The position numbers and the translations under genes are program-made. Below the pieces are notes generated by a model. It was not told the DNA's origin. It ran no database searches and saw only the letters and a list, made by a program, of their open reading frames with translations. Below are positions 1,151 to 46,037 of a DNA stretch of 64,000 nt, piece after piece. Source of the stretch: Protoeuglena noctilucae. Its lineage: Eukaryota. The DNA is taken from assembly GCA_958009085.1 (NCBI GenBank), contig OY253668.1, forward strand, positions 434,001 to 498,000, written 5' to 3'. The first letter of the stretch is position 1. Each line of letters opens with the position of its first letter.

Positions 1151-4100
1151 ATGACGGACGTTTTACTTGATAAGGTCGTCCTTGGGAGCCATGCGGGAGG
1201 GGTGAGCTGGCTATTGTCCGTGGATGGAGCCCCGAGCATGTGCTGAGCTCAGGGCCGGGCGTTGCATGGCAGTTCGCAACCCCCACACACGGATCTCCTT
1301 TGCGCGCTTCTTGATGCGCGCACCATGCTGAGTGAGCTTTGACGCATAGATGTGGATCTCATGATGACGTTGCGCGCGGAGCGGGTTGCCATCGGACCCA
1401 CCCACGAGCGCCACGGGCCAGCAGGCATAGCATGGAGCCATTCATTCGCGCCCCGCGCCTTTAGAGCCTTTCACTTGCATCCACTGGACGTGTGGGTAAC
1501 GATCGCTGATCTACGCCTGTTAACATCCTTGCGCAGGCTCAGGGATCGCTCAAGCTCACGCCGGCCGGGGTCCAGTGGCGTCCAGCCCATGGGGGCAACG
1601 TGCTGACCCTGCGGAAGGATGACATCGACTCCGTGGAGCTGACCCAGGTCCCTGGAGCGTTAACACTCGAGTTGCGGGTGCGTCTAGATCGCCTGGCGCG
1701 GCGGCGGGCGTGGGCGGCGCTCAGCGTGGGTCCCTTGGGCTGGCCGAGCTCCTGGCGGACTCTGCTGCCGATTGGCTTATGTCAGTCGCTGTTCGTACGC
1801 ACATTGGCATATTCTCAGCAACGGGCCTGCCAAGCACGCGTCCCTGCCCTCACGCGCGCTCCGCGAGACCCCCGATGTGCGCTGCGTGCAGACGTCGGCC
1901 GGAAAGAGCTTCTCGTTCGCGGGTTTGAGCGCCGGCGCCGCGGCCGGCACCAAGGCAGTCTTCGAGGCGATGGGGAAGAAGCCCGCGGAGGGATCCATGG
2001 CCATCAGCGGCCGGAATTGGGGCCAGCTGGACTTGGCTGGATCCAGCCTCGTTTTCCGGCGAGTGAAGCGCCTGGCTGCGCTGTGCGGACGTCGAGATCG
2101 ACACGCGCATTGCCTCACGAGCCGTGCGACCCCGCGCGATCCCGCAGAGTGGAGGGCAAGCGCGCGTTTGGCGTGGGGCTCGGGGAGGTCAGCGGGGTGC
2201 AGATGGTGGGCAAGACGGACGTGATGATGGAGTTCCCGGTGGAGGAGGCGGAGGTGGAGGGGGACGCGCTCGTGGAGATGGCGCTGTACGTGCCGGAGGG
2301 GGCGGAGGGGTTCGGCAGGCGGGCGGTGGTCCAGAACGGCGACGCGTCAGCCTCCGCGGCGGCAGACGGGAACGCGGAGGGGGCGGGGAACGACAAGGTC
2401 GAGGTCTTGGAGGTGAGAAGCAGGCAGCGTCCTTGGTCACACATGCTAGACTGGACCCTTACTGATGTTACACATGGAGAGGCGCTTGAGGAGGGAGCGC
2501 GAGCGGGGTTTCTTATTCTTCCCGAGCAGGTGCACCCCGCGGCTGACTTGATGGAGCGGATCCGCGGCCTGGCGGGCATCGACTCGGGCTCCTCCGGCGA
2601 CGCGGTCGCGACGGTTGAGGACGTGTCGCTCGTGGTGCCCCGTGGCAAGTTCCACCTGGAGTTGCACCTCACCATGCTCAAGCTCGTGGGTCAGAGCCAG
2701 GACTTCATCGTCCGGTACTCGTCGATTGTCCGGCTCATCGTGATGCCCCGGCAGGCCTCGCCCCACATGCTGGTGGCCATCAACCTCGACCCTCCCATCC
2801 GCAAGGGCAACACCTACTATCCCCACATCCTGATCCAGTTCAACGCAGCGGAGGAGCTCGACATCGAGGAGATCAACATCACAGACGTGAGCTGCCCGGG
2901 AGGCCAGGGGCGGGCGGCACCGTCCCGGCGCCCTGGGCACCAGGGCTACCCACCCACGCAGAGCGCAAGCTGGGTGGGTCTCTGTCCGCTGACTCGTTGC
3001 CTTTTGCTCGCATCGATGCAGGAGCAGTTCCAGCAGAAGAAGGAGAAGGCGAAGGGCAGGCTGGAGCGCAGCTACTCGGGCCTGGCGTACGAGGTGTTCT
3101 CCAAGCTGCTGCGTGGCCTGTCGGGGACCAAGCTGATCGAGGCGGGCAGGGAGGGGTCCTTCCGATCGACGGACGGCGGCTGCGCGGTGCGGTGCTCCTA
3201 CAAGGCCGACGACGGATACCTCTACCCCCTGGACCGGGCCTTCTTCTTCGTCGTCAAGCCGGCCATCCTCATTCCCTTCGAGGAGGTCCGGGGCGTGGAG
3301 TTCGGGCGCGACGGGCAGGGTGCGCTCATGAACAGCAAGACGTTCGACGTCAAGGTCCGGACGTCCAGCGACGCCGTGCACGTGTTCCGCGGCATCGCGC
3401 GCACCGACTGGGACCCGCTCCTCACCTTCTTGCGCGAGAAGAAGATCCCAATCGACAACCTCGGGGAGGCCCTGCAGGGCCCGGCGGGGGCGCGCGCGGC
3501 GCTCGACGACGGTTTCGACCATTTGGCGGCCTTCGTGGGGAGCAGCGACGACGAGGACGAGGACTTCGAGGTCAAGGCGAGTGGCGGGCAGTGGCGGGAG
3601 CTCGTTGCGTCCCCAACGCGCTGCAGGGGCGCTCGCACGTGCTCACGCGCACTTGCATGCGGTGCCTGGGTTGCTCTCATGCGTGGGCGTCCCTGTGTCC
3701 CCGGCTGGCCGTGCCGGGGTCGCGCGGTCGGACTGGCAACGTAGCTGTCGTGGTTGCCTCAGAGTGCGGACGAGGCGGAGGCGGCGGACGTGTCTGACGT
3801 TTCGGACGGGGACGTCGGCGGGGACGACGGGGCGGAGGAGAAGCCGAGGAAGAAGGAGAAGAAAGCCAAGAAGGAGAAAAAGGAGAAGAAGGAGAAGAAG
3901 AAGGCGAGTTGGTGATGGCGAGGGGATTTGTGTGACTGTTATGGGTGCTGGTGCTGGCTGAGCCCGCTTGTGGGTGAGGGTGGGCGTGCACGGTGTGCTA
4001 CGGGTCGCGCACCTGAGATCTCTCTGCTCTTGGCATTCCATTCGGCTGAGACTGGGTTGACGTGGATGGTATGCTGCCCGCACTGCAGCACAAGGCCAGA

Positions 4101-14403: not shown

Positions 14404-17400
14404 ATGCCACCTCCTGCACCCGCAGCAATGCCGCACCCATTCCACGCGGCCGAGGAGCGGCGCCGCGCGGGCCGCGGTGACGATTGGCAGAGAACCGTGC
14501 GAGACCCCCCCGGGGACATGGCCGAGCCTCCGGAGTCCCTCCGCGGGCGCGTGTTGACGGCGGAGCAGGAGTTTGTCCTGTCGCAGTTCCGGCCCTACCG
14601 CCCGGGAAGCCCCGGCGACGTCGCTCTGTCCGAGGGGGAACCCGCAAACGACTCTCTGGCACAAGCGACGTCGATATCCCACGCGCAGGCCATGGACATC
14701 CCGCTGTCGCTGCTGGCACGCCCCGGCTTCCCGCTGTCGTACTTTGCGGGCCGCGGGGAGGCGGCCGTGCGCCGCAACATGACGCAGCTGTCGGCCAAGA
14801 TGCGCCTCATCAACGACTCCGTCCGCGGGCTCCTCGCCGACGCGCGATCCCACGCGGCCACCATGTCACGGGCCGACTACGCGGCAGTGGACGCCATCTC
14901 GGCCATCCTCGATCGCACTCAGGGCGTCTTCCCGCGCCCGAAGGAGCTGCGCGAGGGGTCTGAGGCNNNNNNNNNNNNNNNNNNNNNNNNNNNNNNNNNN
15001 NNNNNNNNNNNNNNNNNNNNNNNNNNNNNNNNNNNNNNNNNNNNNNNNNNNNNNNNNNNNNNNNNNNNNNNNNNNNNNNNNNNNNNNNNNNNNNNNNNNN
15101 NNNNNNNNNNNNNNNNNNNNNNNNNNNNNNNNNNNNNNNNNNNNNNNNNNNNNNNNNNNNNNNNNNGGGACGCGCAGCTGGGGGACCTCAAGGGCAAGCA
15201 CGAGGCTTTGCAGGAGGAGGCAGAAGGGTTAAAGGTGTCCCTGGAGGCGCGCAAGAGGGAACTTGAGGCCGTGAGGAAGGACCTGGAGTTCTCGCGGGGC
15301 AGGTGCAAGGAGTTGGAGGACGTCCGAGACAAGCAGGCGAAAGCCCTGGACGACCGCTCGGGGGAGTTTGAGGTGAGCGGGTGGTGGAGGTGCATGGGCG
15401 TGAACGAAGTCACAAGTGCGCGTGTCGCTGGCGGGGCCTTACAGTGGACTTGCGTCGCAGCGTGCCGGCATGTCATGCGTAGTTTAAACTGGCAGAACCG
15501 CCCCCGGTGCTTTTCTACTCCCCGCAGAGTCTGCAGCAGCAGGTGTCGGCGGCCGAGGCGGCCCGGCTGCAGATGGAGCAGATGCTGGCGACGGCGCGGC
15601 TGGGCATCGAGAAGCAGCGTGCGGAGTGGGAGCTGGCGCGGCTGGCGGCGGCGGAGCGGGTGCTGGAGCTGGAGGTGAAGGTGGAGCGGGGCGAGAGCGA
15701 GCTGGTGCGGCTGCAGGGGGTGCGGCGGGGCCTGGAGGCCTCGGTGGAGGCGATGAAGGAAGCTCGGAGGAAGGCAGAGGACCGGGTGCTGGAGCTGGAG
15801 GCGGACCGCGAGGAGATGAAGGGCGTCCTGGAGGACGTGGGGACGCTCATGAAGCGGGTCGCGGGGGGGCGCGAGTCGGTGCAGCGGGCGGCGCGGATGC
15901 TCGACAAGGACTGGGACGTGCTGGGGAAGCTCGGGCGCATGCAACAGACGCTGGTGAGCGCGGGGAGCGGCGGGGTGCAGAGTGGAGGTGGCGCTGGGCG
16001 CAGGGGCCGGGAGCCATGCCCTTGGGACATGATTGGGCGCCCCGCTTGTACTATACACCCGTCACCGGCATTGTTCCATTCACCCCGCAGGCTGCCGTGA
16101 TGGACAGTCTTCAGTTCCAGGGCCAGTCGATCGAGTCTCTGCGCGAGCAGCTGGGCGAGTGGAAGGAGCGCGCCGAGTTGATCCAGAAGGACCGCGACGA
16201 GATGGTCAACACGGTGCTGGACGCCAAGACGCTGATGGAGCGTGCGGTGGCCGACGCGCGGCAGGCGGAGAAGATCAAGGAGGACGCGGTGGCGGAGCTG
16301 TCGGCCCAGGTTCACCAGGTGCAGTCATACCAAGTCGAGAACGAGCAGATGGAGAAGGTGATATCGGATCTGCGGAGCAAGATAGCGCTGCAGCTGGAGC
16401 GGGACGCGGACCGGATGGCGCGGTTGGAGCGGTACGAGCGCATGGAGCGGGACATGAACCGGCTGCTGGGGGTGAAGGAGGAGGCGGACATCACGGTCGA
16501 CGCGACCATGCACAGCCTCAACCAGGCACTCGCGGAGCTCGACGCCAAGACCCAGGAGGCGCTGCGGTACCAGGTGAGGCTTGGGTGATGAGCCAAACGA
16601 GCGCGCGAAGGACGTGGGTGCAGCTCGGCCCTCCTAGCGACGGTTGTGGCTGCGGCTGGGCACGCTGGGACCCTCTGTGTCGTGCCCGCGCCATGGCGGT
16701 GTTCTGAGCGCATGGCGTCGCTCCTGGGCACGCAGGGCACGATTACGTCCCTCCAGAAGGAGAACGCCGAGGTGCACGACGAGTTGCGTGCGACCAAGGC
16801 CGACGTCTTCCGTTTGACCATGGAGGTCGAGAGGCTGAACAAGGAGCTGGCGCCGCTCTACGTGCAGCAGGAGAACGAGCGGGCGGCAGCCGCGGCGCTG
16901 CTCGTGCGCAACTCCTTTTTGGAAGAGGCGCTGCGGCGGGGGCAGCGCGCGCTGCGGACGTCGCAGTTCCTCGTGTCGCAGCTCGGCGCGCCCCCGACCA
17001 TGGAGGCCGTGGTGCCGACCGAGGCGCTGGACGCACCGCGGGGCGGGCCGCGCGTGCGGGTGCCCGAGGTGGTGCCCCACCGGCCGCGGCCCTTCCCCGC
17101 CGCCGACGCTTCGCGTCCTGCCGGCGACGAGCCCTCGCGGGCGCCCGTCGGGGCGCTGCCTCTCCGGGGCATGGAGAACGTCGACCGGGTGGTGGGGGCG
17201 GCCATGGAGATGGGGCTCACGGCCGGGGCTGCCCCGGGAGACCGTATGGTGCTCTTCACGGACTACGTGGCCGGGGGTGGTGGCACGGGGGCGGAGAAGC
17301 GGCCGTCCACCGCGGGGCTGCGTGGCCACGACGCCATCGCCATCCCGGGGCTGCCGGCTGCGGACAGTCGGCCTGGCAGCAGCCGCGGCGGCGGGGCGCA

Positions 17401-34281: not shown

Positions 34282-36979
34282 ATGAAGTGGACGCCCGGCC
34301 GGGCGTTCTCGGAAGCATGCGTGGTGGTGCTAGATGTCACCCATAAGCCGGTGATTGGGAGTGGATGGGAGGCCTTCGCGGCGCTCTTCATGTCGCGGCT
34401 CGCGACGACCTTCAACATCACCCGACAAGAGTGGTCCGCCCCTAACGACCCCATTGCCCTCGTTCGTATGGGCACGAACGGCACGAGTAACTCGCTACAC
34501 GCGATGTTCAAGGACGAGGACGGGCCTGGCCAATACCTTCACCTGACGGAAGGTAGGAGCCACGCGGAGGCCACGATGCCGCGATTACTGTGGCGCTTGC
34601 ATGCCTATGGGAGCCAGTCGTGCAGCTGGTGGTTCCGTTTGCCTGAGGAGACGCGAGCAGGGGTCAGCGTCGCCCAGCGCAGACCTCCCGCTGGATGTGC
34701 ACGACGAGAGGACGCTGGACTTGTCCCAGCCTCCGCCAGGTGCGTGCATAGCTTTGTCGCCTTCGCGGCTTGCGAGGCACGCGGTGCGCCCTGCGCGCTT
34801 GGGAAGCCTTGCCTGCGTCTCGGGGACGTGCCGCGGGCCGGCAGACGACCTTCGCCGCGAAACCACTTGCAACTCCACAGTTGCAGAAGAGCGTGGCACG
34901 GCTGACATCCTGGATGCCCTCGCTCTCGCTTGCCACATCCTGGGCGCCAAGAAGGAGATGCAAGGCAACATAGGTCGCCGCATCGTCCTCATCTCGCCGC
35001 TGCTGGGGAACTTTGCAGAGGATGAAGACAATGAGGCGACCAAGGTGATGCACCTAGTGTTTTATCGGCTGCAGCCCGCGCCTGGTGCACGTCTCAGCTC
35101 ACGTGACCGGCGTGTGACTTCATCGGTGCAGGCGATACAAACCGTGATGGCAGAGATGGGTGCGCGACTCGACGTCATCCACCTCGCCACCGATGGCCAC
35201 GATAGCAACGTCGCCGTCCAGCGGAACCGGGAGAAGGCACGGCTGCTAGTTATTGCATGCAGTGCAGTGTGCGTTACGTGCTTTGGGTACCACACCTGCA
35301 CGCTCTGTTCTCGCAGCTCCAGGAGATCTTTGCCGGGCACGGCAGAGGTGCCCCTCCCGTGCACGGCCGGATACGCGTCTGCCGGGACCCGCCGTCGGTG
35401 CGTGCAGTGGGGCTGCGTTGCACTGCTACGGGCTTGGTGCAGACACGCCCCGGACCCTTGCCACGGTCCTTTGCGGCCGCCGCCGCGTCAATTCTTAAGC
35501 CTTTGCCCTGCAGACCGTGGCAGCCGCACTGCCGGAGATTGTCAAGCCGCCAGCGGGCCAGAAGAACGGCGTGCTGTGGGTGGGGAGGAGCGCATCCGTG
35601 GAGGTGCAGATATGGAAGGCTCACGCGACACCCAACATGCTGTCTCCCAAGATGGAGGCAGTGGGGGCGGCCGGGCCGTCGGGGGCGGGCTCTGCGGACC
35701 GCCTGGTGGATCGCCAGACGATTTACGTGGTGGAGTCTGCAGAGGGAGAGGCCCCGCAGGAGGTCATGCCGGAGGACAGGCGCAAGTCGTACCGCTTCGG
35801 GGGCGACCTCGTACCCCTGTCGTCTGTGAGAGGCGCGCAGCTGGGGGTCAGCACCCCGGTGGCGCGGGTGCGGGGCTGGCGCCGTGATGAGAACCCATGC
35901 CCTGTTCCCCGTTGCAGGCGGTGGAGAGGATGCTCAAGTTCGACCCGCAGGATGCTCCGGGAGACTCTGGTACCCAGGTATGTGCCTAGCAGCCAGCGTC
36001 TTGCCCGACGCGAGGTGTCGGATCAACGTCGATTGGGCGATCCATGATGTGTGTCCCCGCCTGTGCGTGCAGAGCCTGCAGCTTCTGGGGTTCGTGCCCT
36101 CGCGTTGCGTGGCCCCGTGGACCACCAGGGCCCCACCGAGCGTCGTGGCGCCGCGCAAGCACGGTGCGGCGGCGTGCACGGCGCTGTCGGCCCTGAGTCG
36201 GGCCATGCGTGCCAGGGACCAGGTGGCCATCGTCCGGCACCTCAACCGCACAACGCACAGCCTCGCCGTCTGCGCTCTCGTGCCGCACCCAGAGCGCGAC
36301 CACTTCCTGGTCCTGAAGCCGCAGGCGAGTGTGGAGTGGGTCAACACGTGCGTGCCAGATGGCATGCCCGGAGCCAGTGCCAGCCTCCCCTGGTCTCGCA
36401 GCCGCATCTTCCAGTTGCTTCACACGTTCCCCTGGTACCACAATGAGGCTCTGCCCACAGCGCTCTGCCCTGGGTCACCCATCCCACCTCCGCTCTGCCC
36501 GCAGCTGTTCGCCGAGGACCACCGGGGCTATCTCTTCCCTTCCTTCGCGTCCCTGCCCGAGGTGCACAAGCCGACCAAGTCCGACCTGGAAACAGCGGAT
36601 GCCCTCATCGGGGACATGACATGGCCCCGCGGCCAGACGCTCTCCTCCCGGTTCCCTAACCCCGCGGTGCGTGGAGCCGCCGGCCTGCTAACCAGGCCAC
36701 GCATCGTGCCGCGCAAAGACTCTTCCCTTCCACATGGCTGTTAGATCGCAAAAGGGTCGGGGGACTGGCGCGTCACTAGCGTGTCACTGGGATGCATGAC
36801 GCGCCCCTCGCTCCCCGCCACTGCAGCGTCACCGCGAGCTGAAGCTCGCCCACCGCGCATCGCTCGGGCAGGGCCCGCCGGCGTGGGAGGAGGAGGCACT
36901 GACGCGGGCGATCCGGGAGATGGGCGGGGACGCGCAGTCAGCAGGCGCACGGCAGGCCTGGCGCGAACTGTTCGCTTAG
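34282..36979 (+). CDS. KU80: Ku80 (XRCC5)-like NHEJ DNA end-binding protein, lacking C-terminal domain
   Basis: vWA domain (CVVVLDV, IALVRMGT, ADILDALALA, RRIVLIS), beta-barrel (KSYRFGGDLVP, LQLLGFVP, ALSALSRAM...VAIVR), LFAEDHRGYLFPSF and FPNP. Ends WRELFA-TAG. Confidence 0.85.
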
Positions 36980-37008
36980 CTCACTACTACTCTATGCGCC
37001 TATCCCTC

Positions 37009-38941
37009 CTAGGTCGAGAGGCCCCATGCCCTGGCCAGGCCATGCTTGTAAACGGCGAAGGCCGCCCAGCACGCGAGCATGATGCCGCACGTGGCTCGAA
37101 AGACGGTCCGCGCCCCGTTGCCGTAGAAGTAGATCCACCCGCCCAGGATGCTGCCGATGCCTAGGCCTATCCCGAAATAGATGCACTGAAAGATGCCCTG
37201 AAAGGTGGAGGAGAGGCCCGGGGGCGCGCAGCGCTTGGCGATGAGGCATCCGACGGTCCACGCGCACGCGAAGGTGATGCCATGGAGCAACTCGGCCGGC
37301 AGGACGGCCCAGGGGCTCGGGAGGAGGCGCGTGCCGAGGAGACCGTACCAGAGGAAGCGGAGGGTGAAGGCGCCAAAGACCACGTGGATCATGGGGCGCT
37401 CCCCGACCCAGGAGAGGATGGGCATGGCGAAGTGGAACACTGCAGGGCAGGGACAGGTGCGCGTGGCGTGTACGCGTGGCGGCACACGATGCGCGGCTGG
37501 ACCTACCCCCACCGCCGCCCCCGCCCCCGCCCCCGCCCCCGCTGCCATCCCCTGAGCCTCTTTGGCGGCCGCACACGCGAGGCCCACCTGGGATCTCTGC
37601 GACGGCCGTGACGAAGAGCGTGAGTCCCCATAGCACGGCGGGCGAGGACAGCTCGTCCAGGAAGAGGAACAGGAAACTCTCAATCACTCCGACGCCGATA
37701 CCCCAAGTCGTGCCCAGGAAGACGAGTTCGAGGAAAGGGGGACGGGAGAGGGCATAGAGTAACGAGGGGGGAGCAGTCGACAGGGAATGCGGTGAGGGCT
37801 CGCCCCCCGAGCTGTCAGCCCCTGCGTCCCTCGCCCTGCCGTGGTGGGCGGCGCGGTGGGCCACCGTGGATAGGGCCTGGTGATCTCCGCCGTGCGTGCC
37901 TTCTGGGTCAACGCTCTCCAAGATGGGCGCCAACTCGATGTCGCTCACCTCTCCCGCCTTGCCCCTGAGCATGCCCTTCTTGCCGGCCTGGTCCCCTGAA
38001 ACGGAGGCACCGACACCCACGGCCAGCAGCCTGTAGTCGAAGTGACTCGTGGGGACGCAGGCCAGCAGCGCCATCACCACGTACAGCGCGAACGCCGCGT
38101 CGATCGTGCCGAGGGCGGTGATGGCGCCGCCGGCGATGAGGGCGAAGCCGCCCCAGCCCTGCGCGGACGAGAGGGGGCGGTTGTGTGAGGGAAAGCACAT
38201 TGTGCGAGGGAGAGACAACCGCGGTGTGATGGTAATTGCCAGAAGATGGGACTCACGACGGCGCCCCACAGTCGCTGCTTGCCGTAGTCGTCCCCGTTGC
38301 CGAGAGTGATGGCGTCCGCAATCACTGCGGGTGGCGACGAACGCGTCTATGGAAGCACCCAAAGCACAGTCCATGGACTCACAGTGCCACCCTGGTTGGC
38401 TTGGGCCGCAGGGCGCCGGACTTGCCACTGATGGGCCCGCTCGCGATCTCCATCAGCACCACCATGACTCCCAAGTACCCCATCCTTGCGTGTGACGAAA
38501 CCTGCCTCCCCAGCATGAGGGCCACGCGTGTCTGTAAAGGGCGAAGATGGCGTGGTGTGCCAGCGCATGGTAGGGAGCCAGCTTCCGGTTCCACTGACGA
38601 CTCCCGCTCACCAGGAAAGCCGCCGTCATGCACATAGCTACCACCAGCCGGTGCTTGCCCATCCGGTCCGCTGCAAAGGCCCACAGTGGGGCAGTAAGGC
38701 CCGAAGCCCATGGCTTGAGCGCACCCAGTACTCCGATCTGGCGCTCATTCAGACCAATTCTCCTGTAGTAGACGCTCAGGAAGGGATGTAAGCATCCTGC
38801 GGCGCCGTAATAGATGCCTGCGGCAAGGAAAAGGACGTGGGAACCATGATGAAAGTGAAAGCCTTTCAATGCACTCTGTGAGGTTCGCTGCGCTCGCTGC
38901 GCCTCACAATACCAGGATTTCATGACAACGGGTCGCCCCAT
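37009..38941 (-). CDS. Major facilitator superfamily transporter (MFSD6/MFS_1-like)
   Basis: PFLSVYYRRIGLNERQIGVL, PLWAFAADRMGKHR, YGKQRLWGAV, FLFLFLDEL, ELLHGITFA, multiple TM helices. Confidence 0.88.
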
Positions 38942-39111
38942 GGTCACTCGAGTTTAAAGCAAGGGTCCGTGGGGCCTGTAGGCGCCATGGGAAGTGCTTG
39001 CAGCAAAATCCATCGCCACCGACCGTGGCCGCCCTGTTGGCCGTGAGCCTAGCCAGGATTGTGCTCGTCTGGCGACAATCTAAGATGCACTGGCTCTGGA
39101 AGAGCGCGCAT

Positions 39112-39134
39112 GCATGGATCCAAATCGTGCTGTG
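39112..39134 (+). repeat. 23-bp direct repeat, left copy (GCATGGATCCAAATCGTGCTGTG)
   Basis: Exact match to 43261-43283; flanking bases differ on both sides. Confidence 0.95.
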
Positions 39135-39476
39135 ACCCTGACACATGGCGCAGGAACATGCGTTGCGTGCCCAGCTCGTCCAGCTGTCTCGTCTCTTTCG
39201 CTGCTCCTTCTTTGCTGAGGTATAAGCGTCGTCTGATCCTCTGTGGACTTGCCCCACAGGTGCTAGGGTCAAGGCGTGAGACGAGGAGAGCCTCAGGGTG
39301 GCTGGGCTGGGTGCGAGTCCCTGCAGGACGCCGTCGATCTGGTCGCAGCGTCGACGCGGGCATGCATGTGAGTGGAAGCCCGATTGTTCAAAACCTGGGA
39401 CTGGAGAACGGGCAACATAGGGCTGAGCCCATGGCTATCTGCCAGCGAAGTTGCGCCCCCCAAAGCACAGCAAGGT

Positions 39477-42400
39477 TCAGCATCCATGCGTGGCCCATTC
39501 CCCGCACTCCAACACCTGGCAGCTGCTGTGCTGCAGACGAGATGAGTGATCACAGTACAGGCCGTACCGGCGACACCCACTAATTCTCACGTCCCGCACC
39601 TCCGCCTCCCCGGCTGTCTGACACCAAACGCCAGTATCGCCAGACCCCGTGATGCGCCCCCCCTGCACCACCACCTTGGACCACTGGCCGGTGCAGAGCA
39701 CGCCACAGCTCTTGCAGTCGGCGATCTGCACGTCCCGCACCTCCGCCCGCCCACCCTCTTGGCACGACACCCCGTGATGATCCTTGGACCCCGTAATGCA
39801 GCCCCCCTGCACCACCACCTTGGACCACTGGCCTGAGCACGACACGCCATTGCCCTTGCAGTCGGCGATCTGCACGTCCCGCAACTCCGCCCGCCCGCCC
39901 TCTTGACACGACACCCCATGATACTTCTTGCACCCCGTGATGCGGCCCCCCAACACCACGACCATTGACCCGGCATTGAAACATGCCACGCCACTCTGTT
40001 TGCAGTCGGCGATCTCGACGCCCCGGACCTCCACCTGCCCTCCCTGGTTGCACGACACCCCGTGAAGCTCCTTGGACCCCGTGATGCGCCCACCCTGCAC
40101 CACAGCCTTGGAGCCCTGGCCTGAGCACCGCACGCCCGATTGGGGTGCACCTGACACCTGCACGTCCGTCAGCACCACCTTCCCGCCCCCGTCGCAATAC
40201 AGCCCCGTCCCCACCACCCGCACCCTTTCCAGCCGCAGCTCGCCCGGCCTCGCGTTGAGAGCGTACCCACTCCCGACCGATGCGTCCACCACCAGCGTCC
40301 CGTTCCGCACAGTTAACGACTGTCCACTCCGCACCGTCACCTCTGTGGACAGCCTCCACTCCCTCCCATGGAGGTCGATGACCCCCCCAACAGGGAACTT
40401 CCCCCGCTGCAGAAAGCCGTCCCTATCAGCCGCTCCCCTCTCCTGAGCCACCCGCGTCTCTGCAGCCCATCTCTCCCCAGCAGCCCGCCTCTCCCCAGCA
40501 GCCCGCCTCTCCTCAGCCGCCCGTCTCTCCTCAGCCACCCGCCTCTCCTCAGCCACCCGTCTCTCCTCAGCCACCCGTCTCTCCTCAGCTGCCCGCCTCT
40601 CCTCAGCTGCCCGTCTCTCAGCAGCCCGCCTCTCCTTGGGAGCAAGCGTTTCCAACCCCCCTTGACCGTTTCCCACGTCTTCCGACCGCAATCCCGCCTC
40701 CCGGATCGCCGGCAGCCGCGCCACAGCCTCCCACACCGCCCTCCGCAACCTCTCCGGCACTTGCTTCAGGAATCCCAGCGCACGCTCCCTACGCAGATCG
40801 TGCTCGTTCTGTCGGAACTCTGCCTCCGTTCCGAACACGTTGGGTCGCCTTGGGTTTCTCTCACAGTTGGCCACGTGCCTATGCGCGTCCTCCCCGCAGT
40901 CCACCAGGCACCACGCGCAGATGGCCGCCCCGCACCCGCCCTCCCTCTTCGGGCACAGCAGCGCCATGCACTCCGCGAAGTCCACCATCTCCACCGCCCG
41001 CCGGCACCGCGGGCATCGCATCACGTTCAGTTCCTCCTCCAGCATCTTTCGGTGCGCGTCCACCGCCTTTGCCTCGTCCCGAACCTCCAGCTCCGCGATG
41101 CGTGCCCTCAGCCCCTCCTCAGCCCCCATCCTCTCCGCCCTCTCCACCTCCGCCGCGTGCCTCCGGCTCGCCTCTAGGAACCGCTCCCGCGCAACGTCCG
41201 GCACCCTGGCCGCCACCGCTGCCGCACGCAGCACCCCCCCACACGCCTGCCCCGTGCACTCCCGACACCGCAGGTGCCCCTCCCCCGTGAACGCCGCCCG
41301 GCTCTCCATAAGCATCCCGACCCTGACCCCCAAGCACTCTCCGCACACGTGGTGAAGGCCCTGCCCTGTGCAAGTCGCCGCCGCCCGCATGGCCACCCTG
41401 TCCAGATGCACGCAGCACTCCACCATACTGCGGATGCGAGAGGTGCACTGCTACCGTCGCCTCTGCACCAGCTCCGAGTCCCTCCCTGCCCGCCGCTCGC
41501 GCTCCTCGCCTGCACTCCCTCGCCCCCGCCAGCATGTCCGCCACGCTTGCACGCTGCGCGGGGTCCCTCTCCAGCGCCCGCAGCGCCGCCGACCGCAGCG
41601 GCTCCGGCACCGACTCGGGTATCTCCGGCTTAACCCCATTCACGCACACCGCAAACATGACCTGCGCCATGGCCTGCCCCGCAAACGGCTCACGCCCCGT
41701 CGCGAGGTGCGACAGCGTGGCCGCCGCCGAGTACGCGTCCGACAGGGGCGTGATCTCCTTCGTCGGGTCGTATTGCTCGGGGCTCATATACCCGAACGTG
41801 CCCCAGGCTTCCTGCCGCGTCGTCCTCCGGGTGTGGCGCTGCAGGCGTCGGGCCATGATGAGGCATAGCATAGCATCGCCGCACATGGACGGAGCCATGC
41901 CTCTTTCCGCAAGCATCACGCCCCTTCGCCATGACGTGCTCCCTCACCGCCATGGACGCCCGCTCCTGCGATATCTTGGCCAGGCCGAAGTCCCCCAGCA
42001 GCACTGTGCCGCGCCGGTCCAGCAGCAGGTTGTGCGGCTTGACATCGCAGTGCACCAGCCCCGCGCTGTGCAGGCTTTCCAGCCCCTCCAGCATCTGCTC
42101 CGCCACGTCCACCAGCTCCCCGACCGGCAGCCCCGTCCTCAGCTCCCGCAGCCGCCGGGCGAGTGACCCCAGCTCCGCCAAGGGCATCACCAGGTGCAGC
42201 GCGCCGTCGATGGTCGACGTCCCTAGCACCCTGCGGACGCCAACACCCGCATCCTCGAGACAAGCCCGCAACTCAGACGCCCCCTGCTCAACAGCGCCTG
42301 CCACCCCGCGAACTTACCGGCACACGTGGGCATTGTTGACCGTCGCCAGGGCCAGCCGCTGCACCTCCTTCGCCGCCCGCTCGTTCGCCCCCGCCTCCGT

Positions 42401-42547
42401 CCCGTCCGTCAGCCGCTTAACCGCGACATCCTGCGCCCGCCACCTCGCGCGCCGCACCTCTCCCTGGTTGCCCTCTCCGGTCCCCAGCACCTCCTCCAGC
42501 ACTATCTCGCTCGCCGGAATGTCCGGGACCCTCGCCCTGACGTCCAT
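39477..42547 (-). CDS. Multidomain protein (~930 aa): non-RD Ser/Thr kinase + RING1/Rcat (RBR-like) E3 ligase + charged helical repeat + right-handed beta-helix
   Basis: Exons 42547-42318, 42230-41948, 41838-41510 and 41427-39477 (2793 nt, frame-consistent; third intron GC-AG). Kinase motifs LGTGEGNQGEV, VAVK, HCDVKPHN, DFG, GTFGYMSPE. RING CCVH...C..HHVCGEC...CREC. Rcat-like CPRC...ECMALLC...CG..ICAWC...H.HV..C. PbH1-type GVxC repeats. Confidence 0.85.
39567..40136 (-). repeat. ~4 tandem 144-bp (48-aa) coding repeats forming beta-helix coils
   Basis: ACCCCGT(G/A)ATGC recurs at ~39644, 39788, 39932 and 40076. Unit GVxCxxxxSKVVVQGGRITGSKxxH-GVSCQEGGRAEVRDVQIADCKxx. Confidence 0.92.
40437..40636 (-). 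repeat. 18-bp coding minisatellite (~10 units, (A/V)AEERR)
   Basis: Repeated GCCCGCCTCTCCTCAGCC-like units on the + strand, encoding AAEERR/VAEERR/AAGERR. Confidence 0.92.
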
Positions 42548-43260
42548 GGCGCCGTCTCGCGCCGGGTGCGTTTTAGATGGCCGGCACACTCTGCGGCCGC
42601 CTGCGTCGCGCTACGGGGGCGCGGCAGGGTGGCATGCAAGCTATCGGACACACATCGACCCCGCTCGCACGTCTGCATGCGCACGCAGCCTCCCCAAAGA
42701 CCGGTCAACGCATACGGCATATCGTGCTCTTGCGCAACGTCGTCACCACCTCTTCCGGAGCCGGCCCGCTCACTTCCGCTGCAACATGCCGTCATATTCA
42801 ACCCGTTCGCACCTGCAAATCTCCACGATCGCCCTCCGCAGCTCACCTTGGGGGCTCTGTCTTTCGTCAGCAAAATCGTGGTCGACAGCTTGGTTGTCAC
42901 GACACCAGGACAGCGTAAGTATCTTGCATGCACCATCTGTTCAGTGTTACTGCGGGCCCGTGGGATTGACTCCACGCCAGTGCCATGCAAGCCCCGTACG
43001 GTGTCAAAGTCACGCAAGAGAAGGTCCGGTGGTCAGAAATGACGTGCGCAGGCTGCCCCGGGACAGCTGCATAACGAGTTGCTCCAGGGCTGGCATGAAT
43101 GCACGGTTTTTCGATCTCTCGCAATGCCGCATGCGAGGCCCCTGCAATGCGGCGGGCATGCCCGAGTAGCAGACGTTCTACGCGGTCGTTGCAGCGACCT
43201 CAGCAGCGAGGGCCGCCATCTGGCCTCGGTAAGCGCCTGGCGTCGCGATCCCTCACTCAG

Positions 43261-43283
43261 GCATGGATCCAAATCGTGCTGTG
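43261..43283 (+). repeat. 23-bp direct repeat, right copy
   Basis: Identical to 39112-39134. Confidence 0.95.
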
Positions 43284-43327
43284 GGTCTACGACAAAGGCA
43301 TAATGGATAACACCGCTCGCGACCTCG

Positions 43328-44432
43328 TCACGTCGACTGCTGCTGGGCGAGGAATGCGTGCATCTTCCCCTGGGGCCGCTTTGCCGCTGGCTTCTCTTCC
43401 CCGTCCTCGTCCTCGGCATGGCGCTTGCCCGGCCGGCTCTCCTGCGCCTTCCTCCGCATTTCCAGGATGTCTGGCATGACATCCCCCATCAGCACGTCTG
43501 CATGGGGCAGGAGGCGGGTCGATGCCACCGAGGGCCAACCAAGTTGACACTCTTCCGACCACCGACGCACCACGCCGCCAGGGCAGCATACGCGCGCTGA
43601 CCGTCTGCCATAACAGCCCACCGCCAGCGATTCCCTCGCCTTGCAAGAAGAACAGTGGACCCTCCCGCTTCATGTCTTGCGTCACAACCTCGACCATGTC
43701 CTCGGGCTTGATGGTTTTGCGTTTGGCCTCCTCGGCCACGTCCTTGCAGCGAGCCACGAGATCCTGCGGGTGCCATCACCAGACTCGCGGGCGTGGATGA
43801 GCGAAACGCAATCGCATCGTGTGGCCATCATGGCTCAGCGGATGGGTCGCAAAAACTCACCCGGAGGAACAGGTCCGTGGCTCGGTTCACAAGATGCAGG
43901 GCCGCTGGAGTCACCCGTTTGATGTCCTCGTCAATGAGAACGATTTTTCTCACCGCCGACAATGGCAGGCCCGGGGTCGCCGTCCGCCCCCCGCGTGCCC
44001 CACCCCGCTCGTCATCGCTGTCGTGAGCTTCTGGGTGACGGACGCGAGAGAAAGTGGCATTAGTGTCCGTAGATCCAAGCGCGGAATCACGGCGCCTCTC
44101 CCGCGCGCTGGGCGCCGCGCGCACCTGGTTTGTTCTCGGCCTGCTCTTTCGCCCCCTCTTTCCAATGCTCCTTTTCCTCCTCGCTGAGGCCCTTCCAACG
44201 CGCCCCTATCTCCTTTGTTACGTCCGCCAGGCGAACCTTCCCTGCAACGCGCGGGGCGCTTCCGCCCGGCTCTCACGCTGCGCCCAGCATTGAAGGCATC
44301 GCGCGACGCGCCGCCGCCGGCACAGGCGCACCAGTGCTCACCATCTGCCGCATTCTTCTTCAGCTCCGTCGTCACCGACTCGCGGACCTGAGAAGCGAAC
44401 AAGATGTACGGGGTGGTGCCCTTGGGGCCCAT
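43328..44432 (-). CDS. HMG-box + H2A-like histone-fold (Dpb3/CHRAC/NF-YC-type) protein
   Basis: HMG box PKGTTPYILFASQVR...DVTKEIGARWKGLSEEEKEHW. Histone fold LPLSAVRKIVLIDEDIKRVT..ALHLVNRATDLFL...KRKTIKPEDM...FFLQD. Confidence 0.8.
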
Positions 44433-44836
44433 CGTGGCCAAACAGACAATCGAACGACAATCTGGTCCTGTGCTGATGCTTGCAACTCCGTTCTCAACCA
44501 GGGGCTGTTTCTGCACCGTGCAGGGGTGGAGGCTGGAGCAGTAAAACTTGGCTCCGACGGCACAGACTGGCGGCGCAGAGGGGCATCCAGCCGAGCGCCG
44601 CCGCCGGCCCGGCTCCGCACACGCAATTTCCCGAGCATCGGAGCGTCGGAGCGGGGTGGCATTTTCTGATAGGGTCGGTCTTGGCGGCGCGAGCTTGCCC
44701 TGCTAGGGCAGACGGGGAGAGCGCACTGGGCAAGCAACGAAGGGTCGAGATTTCTCGGATAACGCCGTGTGACTTTGAGCGAAGGCCAAGGTTCCTCGGG
44801 CGCCTGTCCTTGCGGAAGGGGGCGGCGGTGGGCGCG

Positions 44837-46037
44837 ATGGGCCCGGCGGCGGGAGGGAAAGACGTGCAGGTGGACCTCGTTCAGACGAGGAAGGCGGTGG
44901 AGGCGCTGAAAAAGTGGCTAGGGAAGGCAAAGGTGAACCATTGGCAAGCGGGGAAGCGGGGGCCGCTGCGGCCGAGGCCCGGGCTTGGCAGCGGCTGCCT
45001 CCCTGTCGTCCGCAGGACGGGGGGACGGACTTGCTTGCGGAGGACGATGACGTCATTTACATGCACATAACGCTCAAGTCGGTCCCCACCGGACCGCGAA
45101 AAGACAAGCCCGTCCGCCTGGTGCGGGGCGTGAGGGCGCCGGCCGGTGCTGCTTGGCCGGCCCCGCCCCCGCGAGCCTTGCCCGTCGCGTTCCGCAGGCT
45201 CTCCCCCATCCCATCTACGAGGTGGGCAAGGCGGAGGTCTGCCTTTTCGTCAAGGACCGCGCGGGAGAGGGCCACAAGGAGGCCAAGGAGCGGCACCAGC
45301 GGATGGAGCGGGCGGGGAAGACGGGCATCTCGAAGGCGAGCTCGCTCGCCATGCGGGCGTGCAGCGCATGGCTCGGGAGCCCCCGGCGCCGCGCGTATTC
45401 GGCGGCGCGGGTCCCGACCGCGGAGTGCTGCAGCTTTCTGCGCAGGTCATTGGCATTTCGCAGCTGCGGAAGAAGTACGAGTCCTTTGAGGCGAAGCGGA
45501 ACCTGTGCAACCAGTTCGACGTGTTCCTGGCCGACGACCGCGTCCTGCCCTCGCTGCCCAAGCTCATCGGGAAGAGTTTCTTCCGTGCCAAAAAGCAGCC
45601 CATCCCCGTGAACGTCCGCGGCGACAACTGGGCCAACGAGGTCCGCAAGTCCCTCTCGGGGACCTTCATGGTGCTCCCCCAGGGCTCCTGCCTCAACATC
45701 AAGGTCGCCCTCGCCACCCAGTCGGAAGACGCCATCGTGGAGAACGTCGATGCCGCCCTCAAGGCAGCCTGCGAGAAAATCCCCAAGGCGAGCGGCATGA
45801 CGTGGCGCTTGCGCTGCAGCGACCAGCCGGCCCTCTGGCTGCGGCAAGCTGCATGTCTGGCGCACTGCTCGAGCTTCGCTCCTTCCGTCTCTGCCGCAGA
45901 AGTTCGCCAACGTGCAAGCGGTCTTCCTCAAGACGGCGGAGAGCGCCGCGCTCCCCATCTACCAGGTGCTGCCCGACGTCCAGAAGATTGGCGGGAGCGC
46001 CGTGCTGCGCAAGGGAGCGAAAGCCAAGGCTAGCTGA
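44837..46037 (+). CDS. RSL1D1: Ribosomal L1 domain-containing protein (RSL1D1/Cic1/Utp30 family)
   Basis: LPHPIY..AEVCLFVKD, VIGISQLRKKYESFEAKRNLCNQFDVFLADDRVLPSLPKLIGKSFF, FLKTAESAALPIY. Confidence 0.92.

Follow-up and report, generated by a model that had tools for sequence, protein, structure and literature searches.

A perfect 23-nt direct repeat brackets 4.1 kb of DNA holding one complete, intron-bearing gene for a protein with a kinase domain, an RBR-like Cys-rich module and a beta-helix, between an HMG-box/histone-fold gene and a gene for an MFS transporter. The two copies are best explained, although with slightly less than even confidence, as a target-site duplication left when a staggered break was filled in and took up the 4.1-kb gene fragment. 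All coordinates are those of the 64-kb window, i.e., the whole stretch of DNA that was analysed.

The direct repeat and its junctions

The 23-mer, GCATGGATCCAAATCGTGCTGTG, has exactly two matches in the window, at 39112-39134 (copy 1) and 43261-43283 (copy 2), both on the + strand, as had been predicted, and the count is still two when up to three mismatches are tolerated. None of 100 dinucleotide shuffles contained two or more matches and, by our own arithmetic, about 3e-5 chance pairs of 23-mers are expected in 64 kb, in agreement with the earlier view that a chance match is very unlikely. A repeat search lengthened the pair to 26 nt with one mismatch (39109-39134 and 43258-43283, CA[T/G]GCATGG...). 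These 26 nt were the sole block returned by a Smith-Waterman comparison of the two copies with their surroundings (about 1 kb each), and the four comparisons of 500-nt flanks scored 10-12 against shuffle means of 11.4-11.7; similarity around the copies thus ends abruptly, as the original prediction had it. The window contains 11 exact repeats of at least 18 nt, 10 of which are tandem or periodic, with spacings of 6-144 nt, and the 23-mer pair, with a spacing of 4149, is the sole dispersed one. No 11-mer of the 26-mer occurs anywhere else in the window.

Contigs with zero differences cross 37553-39687 and 42366-45500 in both the metagenome X2 and the isolate X3, as well as 38859-39599 and 42967-43413 in the metagenome X8. 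Both junctions being bridged by error-free contigs of the isolate and of two marine metagenomes, the repeat is not an assembly join, which had been envisaged as a refutation. An artefact or accident (assembly join, polishing error or random match) might be suggested by the N gap at 14967-15166, which marks the assembly as unfinished, but such a reading is ruled out by these independent contigs and, as regards chance, by the shuffles and the expectation given above. The filled form is present in all three DNA runs (X2, X3 and X8), and an empty-site joint, linking 39112-39134 to 43261-43283, was not seen in the 15 joints, out of 24, that are listed for them.

The bracketed gene

The gene lies on the - strand at 39477..42547 and comprises about 928 codons in a model drawn by eye, with four exons (42547-42318, 42230-41948, 41838-41517 and 41427-39477; stop TGA 39479-39477) separated by three introns, all GT..AG (42317-42231, 41947-41839 and 41516-41428). 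The introns are supported by paralogue contigs, which break there (joints 42242 to 42316 and 41818 to 41933/41941). The domains follow one another as protein kinase, RBR-like Cys-rich module, EERRAA repeats and right-handed beta-helix. Against a cut-off of 31.7 bits, the Pfam domain Pkinase reaches 66.3 bits in exon 2 and 33.0 in exon 3, the motifs VAVK, HCDVKPHN and DFG can be read by eye, and the N-terminal part is accordingly predicted to be a protein kinase, apparently active. The C-terminal part matches Beta_helix (75.2 bits, cut-off 25.9) and NosD (31.6 bits). Four 144-nt repeats of 65-100% identity at 39643..40218 (- strand) correspond to 48-residue beta-helix units of the PbH1 type, and 18-nt tandem repeats at 40422..40644 (- strand), reported as 9 overlapping copies of a 79-nt unit, encode (A/V)AEERR hexapeptides.

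The family profile of the Cys-rich module (A1) aligns to RING1 (5caw_A residues 99-181) and RING2/Rcat (258-307) of parkin and also matches RING2 of ARIH1, with modest E-values from 1.1e-5 (best) to 3e-3. The Cys of the 'GC.ALTC' stretch, aligned to parkin 'GGCMHMIC', is kept in the window protein (AECMALLC). The putative likeness to these RBR E3 ligases resides in the RING1/RING2 alignment and the conserved Cys, whereas a helical segment of about 60 residues replaces the IBR; no IBR or RING Pfam domain matched the module at an E of 1 or less. The RBR-like module is otherwise found at the C-terminus of giant helicase/AAA proteins, and we know of no described RBR architecture in which a kinase, an RBR and a beta-helix are fused. 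An apparently active kinase fused to an RBR-like module and then to a beta-helix would make the predicted protein notable in itself.

The gene belongs to a family that is multi-copy in this genome, as indicated by a depth of 4-8x baseline over 39556-40123 and 41544-42395 and by many contigs that are 90-95% alike over these parts; within the cassette, the kinase and beta-helix coding parts alone are multi-copy. Between the bracketed gene and the nearest paralogous pieces, exons diverge by 5-10%, and neither introns nor flanks are shared. Its GC3 of 0.81-0.94 is native-like (0.63-0.86 in the neighbours) which, together with the multi-copy family, makes a donor in the same genome plausible.

Flanks, neighbours and spacer

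Inside the bracket, the 3' flank of the gene (39135..39476, - strand, 342 nt) is non-coding DNA, present in a single copy at 90% identity or more, with a depth of 16-19 against a baseline of 15 in X2 and of 63-67 against 56 in X3. The 5' flank (42548..43260, - strand, 713 nt), to which an RNA contig maps at 42826-43092, is single-copy at the same level from 42680 rightwards. In X2, X3 and X8, sequences at least 90% alike again give a depth at or close to the single-copy baseline over 38988-39555 and 42680-43247.

The upstream neighbour, on the - strand at 43328..44432, encodes an HMG box together with a histone fold (CBFD_NFYB_HMF). Its 3'UTR (43096..43330, - strand) extends from the stop TGA at 43330-43328 to a poly(A) site at 43096, documented by one metatranscriptome contig (43096-43420) with 21 non-templated T before 43096, and includes copy 2, 44 nt past the stop. 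Copy 1 lies 343 nt 3' of the stop of the kinase gene and 170 nt 5' of the ATG (38941-38939) of the downstream neighbour, an MFS_1_like transporter gene on the - strand at 36992..38941. Both copies are thus in non-coding DNA and enclose exactly one complete transcription unit. The original prediction of a single gene between the copies holds to that extent, but the interval also contains the last 165 nt of the upstream gene's 3'UTR, with its poly(A) site. Without one copy and the interval, the distance from the histone-fold gene's stop to the MFS gene's ATG would be 44 + 23 + 170 = 237 nt, exactly as had been calculated; non-coding runs in the window have a median of 160-195 nt, a weak comparison that rests on a crude segmentation by coding signal.

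Origin of the repeat

We infer both that an insertion took place and the route by which it did. Opposite-strand nicks about 23-26 nt apart would have led to a staggered double-strand break within the 3'UTR of the upstream histone-fold gene, and 4.1 kb of DNA with the complete, intron-bearing kinase/RBR-like/beta-helix gene would have entered the short spacer between this gene and the MFS gene. Both overhangs would have been filled in, and Ku-dependent end joining would have trapped an extrachromosomal or ectopic fragment between the filled ends; alternatively, a replication template switch may have had its return point 23-26 nt behind its departure. The product would be an insert between direct duplications of the overhang, requiring neither an element-encoded enzyme nor element termini. 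The mRNA of the histone-fold gene would afterwards end at the poly(A) site 165 nt into the inserted DNA, and the kinase gene would probably use the former terminator region 3' of copy 1. If the repeat is a target duplication, the single mismatch in the 26 nt would be one later substitution.

What we observed is a direct duplication with abrupt ends and without features of an element, as a staggered-break insertion would be expected to leave. Abrupt ends of similarity at both copies are expected of a duplicated overhang, and a Ku70/Ku80 beta-barrel domain (47.6 bits, cut-off 25) in the ORF at 35830-36741 indicates that end joining is available to the host. The earlier proposal of a recent DNA-level insertion with a long target duplication is retained as the best single explanation, in view of the direct non-chance repeat, the abrupt non-coding ends, the single intron-bearing gene and the 237-nt spacer. 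Its 'recent' is not retained, given the divergence of the paralogue exons and the lack of common introns and flanks. No donor locus of the cassette was found, its non-coding ends being single-copy at 90% identity or more in X2, X3 and X8; the event would therefore be a relocation, or the donor was lost, or the event is old. An old event would make 25 identical non-coding bases out of 26 somewhat surprising (P about 0.08-0.25 for 10-15% divergence). Several points count against the insertion: the joints listed for the three DNA runs include no empty site; overhangs of 23-26 nt that trap 4 kb are no documented standard outcome; the upstream gene has its poly(A) site within what would be the insert, so that a new terminator must have been adopted; and, the genome being compact, it is not very improbable for an arbitrary pair of non-coding sites 4 kb apart to bracket one gene.

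The main rival, unlikely on balance although to be taken seriously, holds that the kinase gene is native to this place, that one 23-26-mer is a short insert templated by the other site 4.1 kb off (by a polymerase-theta-type event or a short conversion patch), and that the bracketing is coincidental. The common stretch is indeed just 26 nt, the poly(A) site inside the cassette would need no special explanation, and such an indel would be tolerated at two non-coding sites; the lack of a donor, of an empty allele among the listed joints and of any element feature would fit as well. Templated inserts of more than 4 bp at breaks are documented, some of them with a same-chromosome template at a distance of more than 250 bp, but templates mostly lie less than 250 bp away, as opposed to 4149 nt here (PMC5730883). 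Moreover, an inverted orientation would have been equally possible, the template must have fallen in the minority non-coding fraction, and removal of the interval would only happen to give a spacer of normal size. Improbable in our view is a second explanation, in which the 23-mer is a cis-element (a target of a small RNA or RNA-binding protein, a terminator or an insulator) under selection in two same-strand 3' regions. Each copy is located 3' of a minus-strand gene and the two have the same orientation, copy 2 is within a transcribed 3'UTR, 23 nt is within the size range of small RNAs, and selection would account for the perfect identity. Against this, there is no third or partial copy of at least 11 nt in 64 kb with more than 20 genes, no Rfam match and no remarkable folding (z = +0.04, +0.19, -1.26 and +0.96 for the four combinations of strand and copy). 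RNA depth is 0 over 38420-39271 (X9), which covers copy 1, and an identity of 23 nt would still require a copying event.

The original prediction had also proposed that the cassette could be an att-like recombination product or a non-autonomous cargo element that moves genes around. In such a scheme the enzyme would be encoded elsewhere and the 23-mer would be a long target duplication or an attL/attR core, for which speak the direct, perfect repeat of att-like length and a cargo of signalling/defence type from an expanded family; furthermore, copies were counted in the 64-kb window, by read depth and in metagenome contigs, and could exist genome-wide. We nevertheless regard the scheme as very improbable and found nothing that supports it. 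The absence of visible terminal inverted repeats and transposase, already reported, was borne out: the 300-nt cassette ends have no inverted match of at least 10 nt in common (the best ones, 9-mers, lie 60-100 nt inwards and so are not terminal), and the repeat search of the window gave no inverted pair at the borders. None of the 26 alternative-frame ORFs of the cassette matched a Pfam family, and the 73 scanned out of 74 window ORFs of at least 250 aa held no recombinase, transposase, integrase or reverse transcriptase; no tyrosine or serine recombinase of the kind that acts on attL/attR sites was thus found among them, in or beside the cassette. The ends of the cassette, whose recurrence elsewhere would point to an element with several genomic copies of the same termini, have baseline depth both in the isolate and in the metagenomes, which leaves no second copy at least 90% alike. 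Paralogues have exons but not introns or flanks in common with it, and no excision or empty joint is among those listed. The 23-mer had no match in JGI metagenome contigs and IMG/VR, a weak point since the organism itself is seemingly absent from those collections. Relatives were likewise not found in the metagenome contigs, and the nearest SSRP1 relative is 46% identical. Known target duplications of DNA transposons have a fixed, family-specific length within 2-11 bp, compared with 23 bp exact or 26 bp with one mismatch here. Still more doubtful would be an undescribed eukaryotic mobilisation system with target duplications of 23-26 bp or a 23-bp att-like core, which would shuffle kinase/RBR/beta-helix genes of defence type in a deep-branching marine green alga, the multi-copy family being its product and the older copies lacking flanking signatures. 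Finally, a LINE-type insertion, in which the gene was copied via RNA, comes nearest to the 23-26 bp observed, as target-primed reverse transcription gives long and variable duplications of roughly 7-20 bp or more. It is close to refuted, and the claim that the gene is no processed retrocopy is upheld: the three introns are kept, no A-run occurs at the 3' end from 39135 onwards (the sole run of at least 5 is TTTTT at 43107), 713 nt of upstream flank lie within the bracket, and no reverse-transcriptase domain was found in the scanned ORFs of the window.

If the staggered-break insertion is correct, the locus would be an unusually clean natural case in which break repair moved a whole, working gene with introns to a new place in a compact picoalgal genome, with a long fill-in duplication as scar and an upstream gene that adopted a new poly(A) site in the insert. 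It would then bear on how lineage-specific signalling and defence families spread, and on the erosion of gene order without transposons. Were the repeat merely a templated patch, it would be a curiosity.

Comparison with known systems

Pack-MULEs, Helitrons, fungal Starships and att-site integrative elements similarly carry host genes, have defined ends and are bordered by direct repeats, but the cassette lacks terminal inverted repeats, a hairpin or CTRR-type end and a 'captain' recombinase or integrase, and its ends have no second copy; the length of its repeat is also outside the 2-11 bp of cut-and-paste families. LINE-1-type retrogenes resemble it in their long target-site duplications around a gene-sized insert, whereas here introns are kept, the upstream flank is included, and neither a poly(A) nor a nearby reverse transcriptase is seen. 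In grasses, genes reportedly moved through double-strand-break repair with 'filler' DNA (work attributed to Wicker, Buchmann and Keller, Genome Res, 2010). The likeness lies in an intact gene fragment placed between neighbours without transposon features, the neighbours being conserved and the gene non-colinear in the grasses, but the signature there is said to be a short microhomology, in contrast to a duplication of 23-26 bp here. Duplications by fill-in and end joining of staggered breaks are likewise said to have been described by Vaughn and Bennetzen in 2014 and by Schiml et al. in 2016.

Templated inserts made by polymerase theta are short stretches copied from the same chromosome, which fits a 26-nt identity with abrupt ends, but such inserts are usually shorter and usually have templates less than 250 bp away, as against 23-26 nt and 4149 nt at this locus (PMC5730883). 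Nearby nicks on opposite strands lead to breaks; their overhangs undergo fill-in and Ku-dependent NHEJ joins them, so that the overhang is duplicated (PMC8355091, PMC5730883), and inserts at breaks can originate more than 250 bp away, on other chromosomes or as free DNA (PMC5730883). As far as the excerpts of these studies go, the products of paired nicks are tandem duplications and small inserts rather than gene-sized captures with such duplications (PMC5730883, PMC8355091). The present locus differs from them in having 4.1 kb with a whole gene between the copies and in being known from its sequence alone, and resembles them in a direct duplication of tens of bases with abrupt ends, without an element enzyme, in a window that carries a Ku gene (Schimmel et al., 2017, PMC5730883; 2021, PMC8355091).

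Structure of the repeat pair

The 23-mer GCATGGATCCAAATCGTGCTGTG matches the 64-kb window at exactly two places, 39112-39134 (copy 1) and 43261-43283 (copy 2), both on the forward strand, and the count is still two when up to three mismatches are allowed; a third copy is absent. Two matches arose in 0 of 100 shuffles that preserved dinucleotides. A repeat search lengthens the match to 26 nt, one of them mismatched (39109-39134 and 43258-43283), and this 26-nt block was the whole result when about 1 kb surrounding each copy was aligned locally. Similarly, the 500-nt flanks scored 10-12 in the four pairwise comparisons, against shuffled means of 11.4-11.7 and maxima of 16-18. The original prediction of an exact direct repeat beyond chance, with similarity ending abruptly at both copies, is thus borne out, and the pair is real. 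The window has 11 exact repeats of at least 18 nt; ten of them, mostly within the enclosed gene, are arranged in tandem or periodically at a spacing of 6-144 nt, and the 23-mer pair is the sole dispersed one. No further 11-mers of the 26-mer were found elsewhere in the window, where its shorter words occur as two ten-mers (1.0 expected) and 11 nine-mers (5.0 expected).

The enclosed gene and its neighbours

The interval between the copies holds one gene (hereafter the cargo gene), placed by reading the minus-strand sequence from an ATG at 42547-42545 to a stop at 39479-39477. Three GT..AG introns (42317-42231, 41947-41839 and 41516-41428) were read by eye, and are backed indirectly by paralogue contigs, whose matches follow the exons and stop at 42242/42316 and 41818/41933-41941. 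Exons 2 and 3 encode a protein kinase domain (66.3 and 33.0 bits) with visible VAVK, HCDVKPHN and DFG motifs. Exon 4 encodes a Cys-rich module of about 250 residues (40650-41426) that is not covered by any Pfam family, then about nine (A/V)AEERR units, whose coding sequence is a run of 18-nt tandem repeats (40422-40644), and lastly a right-handed beta-helix (75.2 bits) made up of four 144-nt repeats (39643-40218).

The "E3" label given to this protein holds in part. Pfam found no RING or IBR domain in it at E ≤1, but a profile built from 22 homologous Cys-rich modules matched RING1 and RING2 of parkin and RING2 of ARIH1 (best E = 1.1e-5), and the cysteine aligned with the GGCMHMIC stretch of parkin is present (AECMALLC); the module looks RBR-like. 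An exhaustive library search returned 1452 proteins at E ≤0.001 and 446 at ≤1e-10; in many of them, very long and often helicase or AAA proteins, the module is located at the C-terminus. In 15 of these proteins, we found AAA_11/AAA_12 helicase domains (4/15), a DEAD helicase with RING (2/15), an AAA ATPase (1/15), a beta-helix (3/15) and LRR (1/15). The protein search gave no match to the window's own cargo protein at near or longer lengths.

All three genes of the locus lie on the minus strand. Downstream is an MFS_1_like transporter gene (36992-38941, ATG at 38941-38939), in the region of which a (CCGCCC)n-type simple repeat (37505-37558) cuts the public-run contigs (37500-37552). Upstream is a gene (43328-44432) whose last exon ends with TGA at 43330-43328, and which unusually pairs an HMG box (31.4 bits, exon 2) with a histone fold (CBFD_NFYB_HMF). 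A spacer-length distribution based on the GC3 coding signal was too noisy to carry much weight.

No close relative of the organism turned up in the protein search. A search of 5.8 billion proteins with the SSRP1/POB3 (FACT) gene product (1510-3744, plus strand) returned the window's own protein and then 46% identity at best, the nearest relatives being 37-46% identical. Trebouxiophyte green algae were the best named matches (Botryococcus 44%, Micractinium 37%), and Atlas returned broad eukaryote clusters only. From this protein, the organism appears to be a marine chlorophyte and to have no closely related sequenced species in the protein collection.

The locus in public runs

Window positions 37000-45500 were compared with contigs of four public runs: an isolate carrying the organism's name as label (X3), a marine metagenome (X2), a second metagenome sample (X8) and a metatranscriptome (X9). 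X2 and X3 each contain contigs with no differences over 37553-39687, crossing copy 1, and over 42366-45500, crossing copy 2; X8 does so over 38859-39599 and 42967-43413. These three DNA data sets carry the filled form, and their contigs rule out an assembly join. Among the 15 listed of 24 joints in them, none links copy 1 to copy 2, and neither an empty nor an excised form appeared. A 200-N run at 14967-15166 of the window is an assembly gap or a masked stretch.

Depth in the isolate falls from 55-56 on the contigs left of 39687, through 42-47 in between, to half the former value, 28.6, on the contig right of 42366; the metagenome X2, unlike X3, has equal depth on both sides, about 15. Biased GC coverage is one possible cause of the step, a hemizygous or aneuploid culture another. 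The isolate also has two contigs, with a depth of about 22-24, that match up to 38993 and 45373 and then diverge into sequences that do not occur in the window. In X2 the bin before 38993 has no comparable surplus, and the bin before 45373 exceeds the depth of its contig by just 0.8. These loose ends are probably paralogous or second-genotype pieces.

Copy number and composition

Depth, counted at a likeness of at least 90%, answers in part whether the cassette ends have other copies. At the non-coding interval ends it was 16.3-19.3 and 14.6-16.4 in X2, against a baseline of about 15, and 63-67 (against 56) and 28.6-33 (against 28.6) in X3, so the ends are at or near single copy at this threshold. 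The beta-helix repeats (39556-40123) and kinase exons (41544-42395) reached 4-8 times the baseline depth in both isolate and metagenome, which makes the cargo gene a member of a multi-copy family. Many contigs are 90-95% alike over these same parts and break at intron positions; the paralogues have exons in common, not introns, flanks or ends. No recently copied donor is present at a likeness of at least 90%. In GC3, the cargo exons (0.81-0.94) match or slightly exceed the neighbours (0.63-0.86), and nothing thus looks foreign.

The 23-mer had no match in JGI metagenome contigs or in IMG/VR, which is weak evidence because the organism is seemingly absent from both collections. The N-terminal exon of the MFS gene, used as a synteny probe on metagenome contigs, gave 364 pattern matches, none of them confirmed by tblastn.

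Transcripts around copy 2

A metatranscriptome contig covers 43096-43420 and then continues with 21 T absent from the genome. As this single contig supports the site, we infer, rather than report, that a poly(A) tail is added at 43096 on the minus strand; the contig is hard to explain otherwise. With this site, the HMG/histone-fold mRNA would carry copy 2 in its 3'UTR, 44 nt past the stop and 165 nt ahead of the poly(A) site, and the interval would therefore also hold the present terminator of the upstream gene. Another RNA contig (42826-43092) possibly represents the kinase 5'UTR. RNA cover is zero over 38420-39271, which includes copy 1, and is uninformative on its transcription. A GTGCAT-like word precedes the 43096 site and occurs downstream of copy 1; it was rejected as a shared poly(A) word, TGCAT being inconsistent across 10 gene ends.

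Origin of the repeat

We tentatively favour, with somewhat less than even confidence, a one-off repair insertion. A staggered break in a non-coding spacer would have received one complete gene, and fill-in of the overhangs would have left a direct duplication of 23-26 bp. This is favoured because the duplication is direct and abrupt, lies in non-coding DNA on both sides and encloses one complete gene, and because removing the interval with one copy leaves a spacer of 237 nt from the HMG/histone-fold stop to the next ATG. It is also favoured by the literature on staggered-break fill-in and inserts and by a Ku70/Ku80 beta-barrel domain ORF (35830-36741, plus strand) adjoining the MFS gene, from which it follows that the genome encodes end-joining machinery. 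The main rival, which we consider rather unlikely, has the gene native to its position, with one 26-mer copied in as a repair patch from a template 4.1 kb away. Such a patch needs neither donor, empty site nor new terminator, but its template would be unusually far, in direct orientation and within the minority of non-coding DNA, and the sensible spacer size would be left to coincidence.

A selected motif at both copies is improbable: Rfam gave nothing at gathering score over the window or at E ≤1 over 38800-43600, no tRNA was found at the copies, and the fold energies of 141-nt windows over both copies and strands were ordinary (z = +0.04, +0.19, -1.26 and +0.96). A genuinely mobile element, carrying cargo or of att type, is distinctly improbable. 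The 300-nt interval ends share no inverted repeat of at least 10 nt, none of 26 alternative-frame ORFs of at least 80 aa inside the interval matched Pfam, and no transposase, integrase or reverse transcriptase was found in 73 of the 74 window ORFs of at least 250 aa, the unscanned one spanning the N gap. Retro-insertion is very improbable; the same ends have no A or T run of at least five except TTTTT at 43107. Artefact or chance has a negligible probability. The suggestion of a mobile signalling-gene cassette finds no support. The repeat is real, and the broader idea of an insertion with target duplication stays reasonable.

Two papers on break repair (PMC8355091, PMC5730883) describe how breaks arise from nearby nicks in opposite strands, after which the overhangs are filled in and Ku-dependent end joining seals the ends, so that the overhang is duplicated. 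Inserts at breaks can come from sources more than 250 bp off, other chromosomes or free DNA. The locus is of modest interest as a probable instance of gene insertion by break repair with target duplication, a kind of event that is already known.
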